Below, piece by piece: positions 28,930 through 44,004 of a stretch of DNA of 64,000 nucleotides. The position numbers and the translations under genes are program-made. The notes below the pieces were generated by a model that saw nothing but the letters and a program-made list of their open reading frames with translations, did no database searches and had not been told where the DNA came from. Each line of letters opens with the position of its first letter. The first letter of the stretch is position 1. Location: contig JAHJIW010000005.1 in the NCBI GenBank assembly GCA_018823125.1, forward strand, positions 142,542-206,541, given 5' to 3'. The DNA is from Candidatus Margulisiibacteriota bacterium. Lineage in GTDB: Bacteria > Margulisbacteria > WOR-1 > JAHJIW01.

Positions 28930-28957
28930 TCGCCCCAAAAAAAATTGCGGTTTTCAT

Positions 28958-28985
28958 GCAAGTTTCATGCAAGTTAGCCCGATAG
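28958..28985 (+). promoter_or_regulatory. Sigma-28 (FliA/SigD)-class promoter-like motif, copy A: GCAAGTTT-N12-CCCGATAG, with partial tandem duplication of the -35 element
   Basis: ttttcatGCAAGTTTcatgcaagttagCCCGATAGg, 68 nt upstream of the ATG at 29054. Matches TAAAGTTT-N11/12-GCCGATAA. Confidence 0.55.
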
Positions 28986-29053
28986 GACAAGTGGAAGCAA
29001 TGTATAGTATAAAAATAACAATTTATCCTTTAAGATAAAAAAGGAGAGTTTAT

Positions 29054-29398
29054 ATGGGATTCAATGTTTTTGGTGCGAATGTAGGCGGAGCTTTGAACAG
29101 AGCAACCTATAGTGTCGGGGGCAAGGCAAAGGAATACGGAAAGCTGGCACAAAGTGTTGGTCGAGGGTTTAACCTTTTAGGATATGCGTTACACGGGGAG
29201 TTTAAAAAATCAACCGATGGTCTTGCTAATCGTGCCGGGGTTGATGAACAAGAGCAAGATAGACTCACAGGTGGAACTGATACTGATTTAAATGGTGAAG
29301 CAGAAGTGACGGCTACCGGAAACGAACAAATTGTTGCCCCGGTAAATTTCTCAGATCCAAACAGTTCAGCCGGCGGCACCATAGACATTACTGGATAA
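29054..29398 (+). CDS. Hypothetical Gly-rich protein (114 aa)
   Basis: SD AAAAGGAG. MGFNVFGANVGGALNRATYSVGG... with an acidic C-terminus. First gene after promoter A. Confidence 0.5.
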   Translation: MGFNVFGANVGGALNRATYSVGGKAKEYGKLAQSVGRGFNLLGYALHGEFKKSTDGLANRAGVDEQEQDRLTGGTDTDLNGEAEVTATGNEQIVAPVNFSDPNSSAGGTIDITG

Positions 29399-29408
29399 GG
29401 AGTAATCA

Positions 29409-29630
29409 ATGCCATTTCAAATTGATTGGGTTACGATTGCAATTGTACTTTTTGTGATTTTAGTTTTGTACCATGGTACAAAAATCATCTCTTCATACTT
29501 AAAATTAAGAAACACCAAAAAGAAGCTTAAAGAATTAGATGCCCAGCTTAAAGGCATCAATGCTCAAATTGAAACTCATAAAAATAAAATTCAAGCTGAA
29601 ATTAATCAGCGGCAAAATAAACAGGAATAA
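29409..29630 (+). CDS. Small TM plus coiled-coil protein (73 aa)
   Basis: One N-terminal TM (WVTIAIVLFVILVLY) followed by a K/Q-rich helix. SD GGATAAGGAG. Confidence 0.5.
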   Translation: MPFQIDWVTIAIVLFVILVLYHGTKIISSYLKLRNTKKKLKELDAQLKGINAQIETHKNKIQAEINQRQNKQE

Positions 29631-29632
29631 AT

Positions 29633-40948: not shown

Positions 40949-40962
40949 GGAGGTGAAATAAA

Positions 40963-41139
40963 ATGGGATCAGCCGCACCAACCAGCTTAACACAAACTTC
41001 ATCGTGGAAAGGACAAGATACCAACAGCAAAGCTAAGGTATCGCAACAAATGCTTTCTGATTTAGCACGAGTAAATTCTACCCGCAGAAAAGCACCGGTT
41101 AAAATGGATGACAGCACAAATGAATCGGCAGAGGCATAA
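40963..41139 (+). CDS. Unannotated 58-aa ORF (below track threshold)
   Basis: Perfect SD TAAGGAGGTGAAATAAA, then ATG. Translation: MGSAAPTSLTQTSSWKGQDTNSKAKVSQQMLSDLARVNSTRRKAPVKMDDSTNESAEA. Confidence 0.35.
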   Translation: MGSAAPTSLTQTSSWKGQDTNSKAKVSQQMLSDLARVNSTRRKAPVKMDDSTNESAEA

Positions 41140-41185
41140 AATATATATCTTGTTTATTTTTTAAAAAAAGGAGGTGAAATGAAAA

Positions 41186-42847
41186 ATGGGAGTAAATTTA
41201 GTAGTTGAAAATTCGGCAACCCAAGAAATGACTGCGGCCGTTTCTACGCAGGCAGTTTTAAACCAAGCTGAACAACTTAAGGAAGAATCTATCGCTGATA
41301 AAAAAGCAGGCAAAGCAGATAAAAAATCCCAAATCCGATCGTTGCTTAATCCCAAAAACAAGAACAAAGCCGGACTTGAACTGGTATCCAATCTTATTTC
41401 CGATTTAAATTCTTCTGGTCTTAAGGTTAATAATGCCAATGTGTTGGTTCAAAATAATACTGCCAAAGAAAAAGGCGGCTTATTTGGTGACCAAGAAGTA
41501 AAAGAAGATACAGTTGAAATCAGGGATACGGTACAAAGATTAACCCGTCAAAAAGATGACCAAAATCGTAGACAGCAAAGCTTAAATCCAGAAAAACAGC
41601 TAGTTTTAGATGAAGAGGCTACCGAAACCGCTAATCTGTATGCCCAAACATATGCCAACTATTTAGCTCATCCATCCTCTGAAGCCGAGGTTAAAAGAAA
41701 ATTAGCTAAAATGGAAAATCTGCTTGAAGAGAAAGGATTTACCCCTAAGGATTTATTATCTTTTCAAAATAAAGTTGCGCGTTCGGTTAGACAAGAGGTA
41801 TCCAAGCAAATAAAAGATGCCTTCTTAAAGCGCTTCTTTTCAAAAGAAAAATCAATAGAGTGGGTGGTTAATAACCGTAACCTGCAAAGCACTTTAGACG
41901 ACGCCTTTTTTAACCATAAAATTGGCGGACCCGATTTTGGAGGAGAAAATGGAGACCTCCAGGCTACGGCTAACCGTATTGCAGACGAAGCACGAGAAGA
42001 CGTAAGAAGTTATGTCAGGGATGAAATGGATAAGATGTTGGTTGAGAAACACCTCAAGGGTCCCGATGCTGAAAAAGCTAAAGAAATGTTTAAATTAGGA
42101 CTAAAGGCAGGTTTAGATATTGATAGCCTGTTGAACACGTGGGCTAAGAAACAAGAAGATTTAGGGTTGACCCCATTCGTTCCGCCGCAAAATAGTATGT
42201 TGGGTGCCGGAATGAGTGGTCAAGGTTCAAACCAGCAAAACCAAGAGTCAGTTTTTGATGAAGAAGATAAAAAAGAAATCTTTATTAATTCTTTGAGACA
42301 TATTTATATGCAACAAGCAATTAGTAATGATCTTTATAGCCGCTTTAAAATTCGATTAAAAATGGCGAAACATAAAAATCAAATGATTAAACTTAATATT
42401 CAATTTGAAGAAAAACAGATTAAAGAAGAGGGTAAAGCACTAGCTCGAATAAAACTATTAAAAATGCTTAAGGAGTTTTATTTAGAAAGATCCGCGTATT
42501 ATCAGCTTTCGGGTCCAGCCTATAAACTGACCGAAAGAAAGATTAAAAGTACCTTAAGTAACTTAGAAAGACTGGGCTTTGCCTTATCTGAATTCGAACA
42601 GAAAATATTGATTGATAAGACTAACTTAATCGTACGCGATCAAGTTATTGCCGAATTAAACGAAATTGATTATGCGCTAAAGTTGCATGATCATCCCGGA
42701 TTTAAACGAAAAAGACCGCTTTTAATGAAGATTTTGGCGCGCATCGAAGCCGAAACTAAAGTTAATACGCCCGCAAATGACGCTAAAATTGTAGAGTATT
42801 TACACAGAGGACAAAATGATCTAAGGATCATTGCCGAAGCGGCGTAA
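41186..42847 (+). CDS. Hypothetical coiled-coil protein (553 aa)
   Basis: SD AAAGGAGGTGAAAT. Q/N/K/E-rich with long predicted helices. No catalytic motifs. Confidence 0.6.
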   Translation: MGVNLVVENSATQEMTAAVSTQAVLNQAEQLKEESIADKKAGKADKKSQIRSLLNPKNKNKAGLELVSNLISDLNSSGLKVNNANVLVQNNTAKEKGGLFGDQEVKEDTVEIRDTVQRLTRQKDDQNRRQQSLNPEKQLVLDEEATETANLYAQTYANYLAHPSSEAEVKRKLAKMENLLEEKGFTPKDLLSFQNKVARSVRQEVSKQIKDAFLKRFFSKEKSIEWVVNNRNLQSTLDDAFFNHKIGGPDFGGENGDLQATANRIADEAREDVRSYVRDEMDKMLVEKHLKGPDAEKAKEMFKLGLKAGLDIDSLLNTWAKKQEDLGLTPFVPPQNSMLGAGMSGQGSNQQNQESVFDEEDKKEIFINSLRHIYMQQAISNDLYSRFKIRLKMAKHKNQMIKLNIQFEEKQIKEEGKALARIKLLKMLKEFYLERSAYYQLSGPAYKLTERKIKSTLSNLERLGFALSEFEQKILIDKTNLIVRDQVIAELNEIDYALKLHDHPGFKRKRPLLMKILARIEAETKVNTPANDAKIVEYLHRGQNDLRIIAEAA

Positions 42848-42858
42848 AAGGTGAAAAA

Positions 42859-44004
42859 ATGGATGCAAGTGTATCACAAATAAGAACCGACATTTTAAAG
42901 AAAAAGGAAGTTCGCCCTCTAGGAGAGAGGGGAGATCAACCCGTCGCTCAAAAAAGGACAATGCAAAACCAAGGGCCGGATAGTGTTAACACCATACTCC
43001 CACCTCCGTTTATGCCCGAAATTACACCCGTAAATCCTGACAACTTAATTGCCTTAGCAGATACTAATATGGGAGAAGAAACTGACCTTACAGCTGAGTT
43101 AGCATCCCTACGAGACTTTACTCCAGCCCAATTGCGAGAGAAAGTAGGTCAATACAGAGGAAGATTGCGCGTACTTGATAGAGATGTAACCTTTAAGCGG
43201 GAAACGCTTGCTGAACCTGGTGTACCAGACCAAGCAACCTTAGCTGGAGCAAGTGAATGTGCGGTAGCAACCAGAGACCTAGGTAAAGAAATGAAAGCAT
43301 TAGATGATGCAATTGATGACGATGATCCCGAAATGGCAGAAATTAGAAGCGAATTAAATGAAGCTCAACAGGTTTATGCTGAAATAGTTGGGAACTTAGA
43401 AGGCTTAGCCGCTGATTTGCATCAAGCAGGTTTCACCGAAATTGCAGATGAAATTGGAAGTATCTTAGCCGAAATCGACGCAATTCAGTCTGGGTTTTCC
43501 ACCTCCGCAATTACTAACGAAAGCGATGATGTATCTACGCTTGGTAGCACTGGCTCAACCGACTGGATAGGATTAATCGAATCGGCTGCTGATAATCCTG
43601 CACTTTTAGCTCTGATTATGAAATTCTTAGAAAATGATGCAGCCATGAGAGAAATCATTGTTAATAATATTCAAGAAAGAAAAGAGGAAGAAAAAGAACT
43701 TGAAAAACTAATGGAAAATAAAAAAGAAGAAAGAAAGCCAATTAGAAACGCCCTGATTGAACAAATTCAACAATTAGATACTTATCGTAAAAAACTTAGC
43801 GTAGCCTTAGATACTTTGCAAGTTGCTAACCAAAAGCTAGAAGCCATGTCTGACCAGCTTTCTCCTCAGCAATATGCTGCCTTATTACAAGAAATCGCAA
43901 GTGCTCGAAGCAAAAGTGTGCAGGCATTAACTCAAGTAGGAGGCCAGAGAAACATTGCAATCCTTCAAGCCCGCGAAGAAGGAATCGACCTCTCTAACGT
44001 TTAA
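42859..44004 (+). CDS. Hypothetical acidic coiled-coil protein (381 aa)
   Basis: D/E/A/L-rich, e.g. KEEEKELEKLMENKKEERK. Its 3' end overlaps the convergent phosphatase gene by 4 nt. Confidence 0.6.
   Translation: MDASVSQIRTDILKKKEVRPLGERGDQPVAQKRTMQNQGPDSVNTILPPPFMPEITPVNPDNLIALADTNMGEETDLTAELASLRDFTPAQLREKVGQYRGRLRVLDRDVTFKRETLAEPGVPDQATLAGASECAVATRDLGKEMKALDDAIDDDDPEMAEIRSELNEAQQVYAEIVGNLEGLAADLHQAGFTEIADEIGSILAEIDAIQSGFSTSAITNESDDVSTLGSTGSTDWIGLIESAADNPALLALIMKFLENDAAMREIIVNNIQERKEEEKELEKLMENKKEERKPIRNALIEQIQQLDTYRKKLSVALDTLQVANQKLEAMSDQLSPQQYAALLQEIASARSKSVQALTQVGGQRNIAILQAREEGIDLSNV

Follow-up and report, generated by a model that had tools for sequence, protein, structure and literature searches.

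FliA-family sigma factors are known to serve developmental programmes that have nothing to do with flagella, as with the sigma-28-dependent late genes of the chlamydiae and the WhiG targets of Streptomyces. The terminal organelle of Mycoplasma (HMW1-3, P65) offers a precedent of another kind, being a membrane-associated structure that works with surface adhesins and is made of acidic coiled-coil proteins without signal peptides, encoded in operon clusters and including a giant of ~1800 amino acids (aa). Among the Margulisbacteria, an uncultured lineage that is sister to the Cyanobacteria and whose cell biology is essentially unknown, there are ectosymbionts. At least one further member of the phylum is an intracellular symbiont (10.1101/568287), and some members carry flagellin and FlgV (PMC7018530, PMC11607428). 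The promoter consensus described for sigma-28 is TAAAGTTT-N11-GCCGATAA (PMC7286023), and the FliA consensus of attack-phase Bdellovibrio, which is based on mapped start sites, is TTAAG-N16-CCGATA (PMC3627812, where the chlamydial sigma-28 work is also cited). Here we describe a 15-gene block in a stretch of 64,000 nucleotides from a Candidatus Margulisiibacteriota bacterium (GenBank assembly GCA_018823125.1, contig JAHJIW010000005.1, positions 142,542 to 206,541; this whole stretch is referred to as the window, and positions are those of the window). Its genes match no recognised family, lie behind four copies of a promoter that probably belongs to the sigma-28/FliA class, and recur in the same order across the phylum.

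The block extends over positions 29054-44004 and consists of 15 open reading frames (ORFs, O01-O15), all on the + strand and most of them with GGAGG-type Shine-Dalgarno sites upstream, as the original prediction, made from the sequence of the window, had described. The flanks that it named, a GT4 gene upstream and the his locus downstream (His_Phos_1/hisA/hisH), are confirmed as well, and the non-block genes of the window are all housekeeping genes. Its size classes were in error, as they do not add up to 15 and omit the 216-aa ORF. The genes, the four promoter copies (P1-P4) and a hairpin are listed here, with L numbers designating loci in related DNA:
28953..28984, + strand: P1, TTC ATGCAAGTTT ... 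CCGATA, kept before the first small unit-1 gene in L036 and L015
29054..29398, + strand: O01, 114 aa, rich in Gly at the N-terminus and acidic at the C-terminus, no family
29409..29630, + strand: O02, 73 aa, transmembrane helix at the N-terminus, then a Lys-rich coiled coil
29633..30880, + strand: O03, 415 aa, with a canonical EF-hand loop, DSNGDGKLNADE, that scores below the Pfam threshold
30886..31125, + strand: O04, 79 aa, N-terminal transmembrane helix and Lys-rich coiled coil
31171..31202, + strand: P2, the equivalent position carrying the motif in L040
31254..36869, + strand: O05, giant of 1871 aa, polar and acidic N-terminus, no signal peptide
36884..36915, + strand: P3, with an equivalent position after the giant in L064, L034, L075 and L076
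36941..37186, + strand: O06, 81 aa, small and helical, tail rich in Gly
37199..37501, + strand: O07, 100 aa, small helical protein with homologues in L041, L022 and L064
37521..37799, + strand: O08, 92 aa, probably belongs to a family of small proteins (A4)
37806..37829, no strand: GC-rich hairpin between O08 and O09, terminator- or attenuator-like
37899..38204, + strand: O09, 101 aa, conserved, always directly 5' of O10 (8 loci)
38217..39788, + strand: O10, 523 aa, aromatic-rich body and strongly basic C-terminal Lys/Arg/Ala tail (8 loci)
39813..39844, + strand: P4, with an equivalent position in L041, L021, L075 and L076
39886..40536, + strand: O11, 216 aa, without a family; relatives have positional analogues of 164-226 aa
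40538..40948, + strand: O12, 136 aa, best-conserved small protein
40963..41139, + strand: O13, 58 aa, strong Shine-Dalgarno site, not conserved in relatives
41186..42847, + strand: O14, 553 aa, disordered N-terminus and two all-helical domains
42859..44004, + strand: O15, 381 aa, acidic and coiled-coil, closing the block

None of the 15 ORFs passes the curated Pfam cut-offs, the sole Pfam signals being the EF-hand loop of O03 and coiled-coil noise in O15. PHROGs, NCBIfam and PADLOC, each run on 10-11 of the ORFs, also returned nothing above threshold; the only two PHROGs matches (E~0.003) are both to families of unknown function, and the JetC and LmuB matches of PADLOC in O15 (E about 1e-3) are coiled-coil noise, so that an anti-phage defence system was rejected. 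Across these four libraries no catalytic or other family was found in the block ORFs; no P-loop protein is among them, the block proteins searched against the PDB have no match above threshold, and Rfam identifies zero RNA families over the whole window. The view of the block as 15 ORFs without homology in the curated libraries is borne out.

The block also differs from its surroundings in composition. GC content is about 0.40 in the block and 0.44 in the flanks, with most of the contrast at the third codon position (GC3 of 0.33 versus 0.43 in the 37 housekeeping genes of the window, all 15 block ORFs being within 0.27-0.38), and codon usage correlates with that of neighbouring housekeeping genes at 0.89 against a baseline of 0.98. 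The AT-richness noted by eye is therefore real, but it does not mark a foreign island, because the same locus and flanks are found in distant relatives; the GC3 dip is confined to the genome of the window, and in the syntenic relatives L075 and L076 the GC3 of the block equals that of its flanks. The dip could reflect low or phase-restricted expression in this lineage. Relative to the same 37 housekeeping genes, the block proteins are poor in Cys (0.4% versus 0.9%) and in Lys and have an excess of Gln, Ser, Asn and Glu; no signal peptide is present on any of them.

The promoter motif in the form TGCAAGTT-N(10-16)-CGAT occurs four times in the 64 kb, against 0.04 copies expected, at 28957, 31175, 36888 and 39817. 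All four copies are on the + strand, intergenic and within the block, and they also fit the stricter form TTYATGCAAGTTT-N13-MCGATW. Alignment of 55 sites gives an A-rich upstream region followed by TTTC-ATGCAAGTTTT-N11-a(C/A)CGATA-atatAaGTGnAAg, and the searchable form is TTTCATGCAAGTTT-N13-(C/A)CGATA. CGAT stands at a fixed offset after 58 of 69 occurrences of TGCAAGTT in 398 kb of related DNA (CGAATA after 4 more), and in 1.04 Mb the letters before AGTTT-N13-NCGATW are TGCA in 208 cases, CGCA in 6 and something else in 5, giving a -35 box of (T/C)GCAAGTTT in 214 of 219 sites; both ratios overstate the independent support, because many sites were chosen by the scans themselves. The -10 variant CGAATA is found before the 101-like gene in three relatives and, in L041, before the small post-giant genes (L041 2551; L051 3854, - strand; L075 5831; L076 6278). 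The -35 box of P1 is tandemly duplicated, ATGCAAGTT being present at 28956 and again at 28967, 11 nt apart, which may serve to shift or double the sigma-factor site. We note that a matching -35 duplication is seen in the Saganbacteria promoter after the giant gene (L064 7065-7096).

The original prediction divided the block into four transcription units, each behind one copy of the motif. The four copies stand, but the separateness of the units probably does not: P2-P4 start 15-45 nt past the preceding stop codon with no terminator between, and the hairpin at 37806-37829 lies inside unit 3, where it splits the first three ORFs from the O09/O10 pair, which in the window has no motif of its own and is preceded by the hairpin and an AT-rich spacer. 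We therefore regard the arrangement as four promoter inputs into one co-directional array, in which the units probably overlap by read-through.

The promoter consensus may be written as GCAAG-N16-(C/A)CGATA. Its -10 box, (C/A)CGATA(A/T), shares the CGA core of GCCGATAA in all four window sites and in the 55 aligned sites, and GCAAGTTT in the -35 region agrees with TAAAGTTT at 6 of 8 positions, with a spacer of N12 versus N11 in E. coli and Pseudomonas. Set beside the Bdellovibrio form, the spacer is exactly N16 here too (GCAAG-N16-CCGATA versus TTAAG-N16-CCGATA). Because the -35 box, the -10 box and the spacer all agree with the published consensuses (PMC7286023, PMC3627812), the sigma-28-type class that had been predicted is accepted, and consensus together with conservation makes sigma-28/FliA the probable and best assignment. 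A sigma-70 reading was rejected, since the best -35 alignment matches at 1-3 of 6 positions and sigma-70-like sites are not enriched in the block.

A search for the motif beyond the window, as originally suggested, proved productive. Scanning one genome per species from 185,579 species with TTYATGCAAGTTT-N13-MCGATW yielded 71 loci versus about 35 expected by chance (our own estimate); 25 of these are from metagenome-assembled genomes (MAGs) labelled Margulisbacteria, Saganbacteria, WOR-1 or Marinamargulisbacteria, about 15 more are from unlabelled MAGs with the same extended motif that are probable members, and several genomes have 3-7 loci each. Matches in Lachnospiraceae, Treponema and Lysinibacillus were considered as flagellar positive controls and rejected, as they stand before unrelated genes and are chance matches. 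Homologues of the cluster genes, identified by tblastn, blastp and jackhmmer, show that genes, order and promoter positions are shared by L034, L036, L040/L041, L021/L064, L022, L051, L072, L075 and L076. L040 contains homologues of the 415-aa and 79-aa proteins, the motif and the giant, and L041 continues with the end of the giant, homologues of the 100-, 101- and 523-aa proteins, the motif, and a 226-aa protein followed by 136-aa and 553-aa ones (60% and 41% identity, respectively). L036 (WOR-1) has the motif, a 116-aa protein, a transmembrane protein of 68 aa, a 448-aa protein and the giant; L034, L022 and L072 have the motif, small proteins and 101-like and 523-like proteins; and the cluster is also found in L021 and L064 (both Saganbacteria) and in L051. 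Two long contigs reached through the 553-aa family, L075 and L076, show the same gene series with the motif at equivalent positions.

The flanks are shared as well. Downstream of the cluster, L075 and L076 have the series His_Phos_1-PEPCK-hisA-hisH-ROK-groES-groEL, as in the window, and the upstream flank rpiB-NTP_transferase-(GT4) is kept in both WOR-1 and Saganbacteria. The conserved core consists of the giant, the 101/523-aa pair and the 136-aa and 553-aa proteins. Since flanks and order are shared across classes and the relatives have no GC3 dip, the cluster is, as judged from its synteny, ancient, vertically inherited and phylum-wide in the Margulisbacteria rather than an island. Horizontal transfer was ruled out on the same two grounds, the specificity of the GC3 dip to the window genome and the conserved synteny.

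Some relatives carry additional genes within or beside the cluster. Genes of low GC3 encoding 23S_rRNA_IVP four-helix bundles lie between cluster units in L075 (4000-4356) and L076 (4240-4740 and 13385-13801); these insertions are absent from the window block. A GT2+TPR glycosyltransferase gene is found inside unit 4 of the Saganbacteria locus L021 (3784-4887) and another, in L004 (5-1099), just after a motif-driven 120-aa gene, and at the same place L075 (9069-9803) encodes a 244-aa protein with a DxD-like motif. Cytoplasmic protein O-glycosyltransferases, among them those that modify flagellin, have this GT2+TPR architecture. The window block has none, and NTP_transferase and GT4 lie directly 5' of P1 (26662-28929).

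A second motif scan, of Joint Genome Institute (JGI) metagenomes, gave at least 119 stretches totalling 645 kb, and in roughly 1 Mb of related DNA there are about 180 promoter sites. Downstream of them are families from the block (those of the giant, O14, O09 and O10), PorV/UPF0164-like outer-membrane barrels (17 members, some with SLH domains) and large Ig-like proteins with a C-terminal domain like those of the type IX secretion system (T9SS); other motif-driven genes are mostly singletons without a family. Ig-like, SLH and UPF0164 are the only recurring domains among 133 downstream proteins. Families of flagellin, FlgM, FliS, FliD, Mot and chemotaxis proteins number 0 among 10 + 133 proteins from scans that required the ATGCAAGTTT form of the -35 box, and tblastn with a B. 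subtilis Hag query found no flagellin in about 1.1 Mb of related DNA. At their N-termini the regulon proteins have many N/S/T/Q/G residues and few charged ones (p=6e-8). Because outer-membrane proteins are present, the hosts appear to be diderm. From their downstream genes, the promoters in this phylum define what is evidently a regulon of lineage-specific proteins, outer-membrane and Ig-like surface proteins included, and the sigma-28-type promoter class is likely used here for something other than flagella.

The largest downstream family, with 32 members (L024, L033, L039, L095, L115, L149, L184 and others), belongs to a second motif-driven orphan operon, whose proteins of ~90-250 aa, ~140 aa and ~105-175 aa (with EPKVFxGxKLNPE) have no Pfam match. 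PorV/UPF0164-like genes, one with three SLH repeats, are found in L007/L052, L018, L065, L070, L131, L188 and L196. The large Ig-like proteins adjoin PorV-like genes, and their T9SS-type C-terminal sorting domain is sub-threshold; this hints at a possible PorV-cargo-like surface display module outside the Bacteroidota.

Among the proteins of the block itself, O01 has positional analogues in L036 (116 aa) and L015, and O02 has a homologue in L036 (L036_d2_68) and analogues in L015. The two minis O02 and O04 do combine a transmembrane helix with a coiled coil, as originally described, but as paralogues they are weak (28% identity, E=0.003); by the positive-inside rule their Lys-rich coiled coils would be cytoplasmic. 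The EF-hand protein of the original prediction, O03, likewise has the canonical loop although its match is below the Pfam threshold. It has a homologue in L040 and positional analogues, L015_d3_503 and L047_d2_538, with EF-hand-like loops by eye. The giant, O05, contains a module of ~200 aa repeated 4-5 times, in which a helix ending in (E)ELxGKxGT is followed ~65 residues on by a hydrophobic hairpin; the hairpins, of about 20-42 aa, are at residues 469-508, 664-705, 875-907 and 1076-1096. Its C-terminal ~700 aa are acidic, rich in helix and presumably a coiled coil, to go by composition and reading. Homologous giants in 8 loci keep the periodic hairpins, and Pfam assigns no domain to the giants from 6 of the relatives.

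Family A4 is conserved at both its N- and its C-terminal end, with a central insert of 0-30 residues between them, and O08 aligns weakly to it at the equivalent position (hhalign P=0.005). O12 is 60% identical to its homologue in L041 and 37-45% identical to the others, and O15 has positional analogues of 343 aa in L075 and 451 aa in L076. The profile of the O14 family retrieves 273 representative clusters (at the 50% identity level) among 1.84 billion proteins, of which 198 have E<1e-30 and nearly all are full-length; none of the 273 is annotated, and the ten longest relatives have no Pfam domain and no informative domain fusion. An AlphaFold2 model of O14 from 102 family members has a mean predicted local distance difference test score (pLDDT) of 79.8, with ~140 disordered N-terminal residues and helical domains at 141-335 and 357-525 where pLDDT is above 90. 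No fold match was found for this confident model; an earlier one from 12 sequences was poor (pLDDT 59.6) and its Foldseek search of the PDB was empty. PDB profile searches with the O14, O09 and O10 families found no relative.

The reading that we favour, plausible though somewhat short of probable, is that the products of the block, a cluster of new non-enzymatic families, form a supramolecular, membrane-anchored structure of the cell envelope. Its components would be the small membrane-anchored coiled coils O02 and O04, the EF-hand protein and the hairpin-anchored giant, together with several predicted helical proteins of ~100 aa and three to four large helical proteins. What they build may be an organelle of attachment or contact, or else a filament-like structure, and would be made alongside the new outer-membrane and adhesin-like proteins in one phase of life under an alternative sigma factor, in the manner of FliA in attack-phase Bdellovibrio (PMC3627812) and of sigma-28 at chlamydial late genes. 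It is more doubtful that the subunits leave the cytoplasm without Sec signals to build an undescribed organelle of the Margulisbacteria, with a FliA-type sigma factor re-purposed from flagella. Hints of surface exposure come from the EF-hand loop in O03 and similar loops seen by eye in its positional analogues, from the low Cys and the S/T/N/Q excess of the block proteins, from the GT2+TPR genes in the L021 cluster and behind the motif in L004, and from the placing of outer-membrane and Ig-like proteins under the same promoter. An apparatus for contact or attachment would suit a phylum with ecto- and endosymbiotic members, though this is speculation. In the Margulisbacteria literature we found no account of the cluster or of the motif.

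Several points weigh against an envelope structure. The EF-hand, the low Cys and the polar composition are each weak hints and partly follow from the make-up of coiled coils; in the block proteins the polar N-terminus shows no greater polarity than the rest of the chain; and the absence of signal peptides makes most of the block proteins cytoplasmic by default. The envelope structure, with its assembly, localisation and expression, is a prediction from the genes. The promoter, likewise, has a putative function, assigned by consensus similarity and conservation, and a sigma factor of the extracytoplasmic function (ECF) type or an activator site overlapping the -35 box are alternatives; tblastn with B. 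subtilis SigD and E. coli FliA queries found no sigma factor gene in ~1.1 Mb of related DNA.

If the products are exported, they might instead be substrates of a type III exporter, flagellar-type or injectisome-like, that is encoded elsewhere, and the block a set of late sigma-28 genes. On this view of a type III secretion system (T3SS) or its flagellar counterpart, the small hairpin proteins would supply needle-like or filament subunits, the 523- and 553-aa proteins the tip or cap, the giant a translocator or Inc-like protein and the 136-aa protein a chaperone. Flagellin and FlgV do occur in some Margulisbacteria (PMC7018530, PMC11607428). The promoter class, the polar and charge-poor N-termini of the regulon (p=6e-8), the conserved ends and variable centre of family A4, and the resemblance of the ~40-aa hydrophobic hairpins to translocators or Inc proteins all fit, as does the lack of signal peptides in proteins whose EF-hand and low Cys yet hint at extracellular life. 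The GT2+TPR gene in the cluster of relatives, with its presumed likeness to flagellin glycosyltransferases, would fit too. We nevertheless consider this explanation unlikely: Pfam flagellar, T3SS and chaperone families give 0 matches at E<=1, family A4 aligns to needle proteins with an hhalign probability of 0.3%, no apparatus gene is present in ~90 kb (the window and up to 10 kb beyond each end), and ~1.1 Mb of related DNA contains neither flagellin nor FliA, with no flagellar family behind the ~180 sites. The parallel originally drawn with substrates of flagellar, T3SS or type VII secretion systems (T7SS) could not be confirmed, neither a family signature nor a nearby secretion apparatus having been found, and a T7SS locus was rejected outright, as there is no WXG100, LXG or EssC/EccC FtsK-type ATPase and the only trace is a match of O15 to WXG100 (E=0.057). 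Were the block an ordinary flagellar class III locus, too diverged to recognise, it would share the promoter class and, loosely, the gene sizes of FlgM/FliS/FliD/FlgK. We judge it very improbable, since few bacterial sequences are as well conserved as the termini of flagellin and hook-associated proteins and Margulisbacteria flagellins are recognised publicly (PMC7018530), 0 of the 15 ORFs match flagellar Pfam or NCBIfam models, and the transmembrane minis, the EF-hand protein and the hairpin-anchored 1871-aa giant have no flagellar counterpart; the original prediction was right that no flagellin or hook-associated signature is present.

If the products stay inside, the block could be an intracellular late-stage programme that makes a cytoskeleton or scaffold of coiled coils, anchored at the inner membrane, for shape, polarity or division, with nucleoid-binding proteins added in a variant that resembles chlamydial sigma-28 late genes or WhiG targets. 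All the soluble members lack a signal peptide, the O02 and O04 coiled coils would be cytoplasmic by the positive-inside rule, O15 and the C-terminus of the giant have coiled-coil character, and, by eye, the long, basic Lys/Ala/Ser tail of the O10 proteins is reminiscent of histone-like tails. This too seems improbable, however, given the co-regulation with outer-membrane and surface Ig-like proteins, an EF-hand loop and a GT2+TPR gene that better suit exported proteins, and a Pfam result without any bactofilin, DivIVA or crescentin-like family. Reading the block as the remnant of a prophage or tailocin, or as a mobile island, with the giant as tape-measure protein would account for a GC3 below that of the flanks and for the Gly-rich hydrophobic segments of the giant. 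It is, even so, virtually excluded: PHROGs families with a function number 0, the window has no integrase, terminase or capsid gene and no tRNA, and chromosomal position and flanks are identical across classes in relatives that show no GC3 dip. Conserved synteny and the PHROGs result refute such a remnant, and the earlier statement that phage structural, terminase and integrase genes are lacking holds for PHROGs, Rfam, the gene content of the window and the fixed synteny alike.

Beyond the choice among these explanations, a conserved cluster of 12-15 genes is now defined across the phylum, one member of which has 273 representative clusters, and the promoter TTTCATGCAAGTTT-N13-(C/A)CGATA marks a 'dark' regulon of envelope and orphan proteins that can be read in any MAG. 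If the structure is indeed a surface or contact organelle, it would be a new kind of bacterial cell structure and would help to explain attachment to, or life inside, other cells. Elsewhere in the window, 13156-20709 encodes a tyrosine-decarboxylase-like pyridoxal-phosphate (PLP) enzyme and an amino-acid permease on the - strand and OtsA, OtsB, DUF5752 and TreT-type trehalose genes on the + strand, and two phosphoglucose isomerase genes flank a low-GC patch (0.33) at 59000-60000 with a HEPN-domain gene (59259-59708) and one small ORF that lacks annotation.

Of the known classes with which it was compared, the block can be assigned only to the promoter class, and its proteins form new families, one of them large. 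It resembles T3SS substrate operons and Inc proteins in setting small helical proteins beside large helical ones with ~40-aa hydrophobic hairpins, in lacking signal peptides and in its late-gene type of control; Pfam and PDB profile searches and the comparison of A4 with needle proteins (0.3%) gave no homology to SctF, SctA, SctE, SctB or class I-III chaperones, and where Inc proteins have a bilobed hydrophobic domain of ~40 aa and a T3SS signal, the giant has four hydrophobic hairpins of about 20-42 aa with no homology to Inc. T7SS loci (WXG100, LXG/Lap, EsaA, EssA/B/C) also group helical proteins of ~100 aa with small membrane proteins of a single pass and one large membrane protein that has long helical regions, but WXG100, LXG and FtsK/EssC are not in the block and the hosts here appear diderm. 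The Mycoplasma terminal organelle is a functional analogy only, as there is no homology, the regulation differs and no such organelle is evidenced in the Margulisbacteria. The chlamydial sigma-28 and WhiG regulons have target genes unrelated in sequence to those described here, where one 15-kb structural cluster dominates the regulon. Another close system is the FliA regulon of Bdellovibrio (PMC3627812). That regulon keeps its flagellar genes and its FliA is identified, whereas here no flagellar gene lies behind ~180 sites and the sigma factor was not found, and the -35 region here, (T/C)GCAAGTTT preceded by TTTCA, is much longer; yet the spacer and the -10 box are identical to those of the promoter described here, and the Bdellovibrio regulon, too, spans surface proteins and many uncharacterised proteins and defines a phase of the life cycle.

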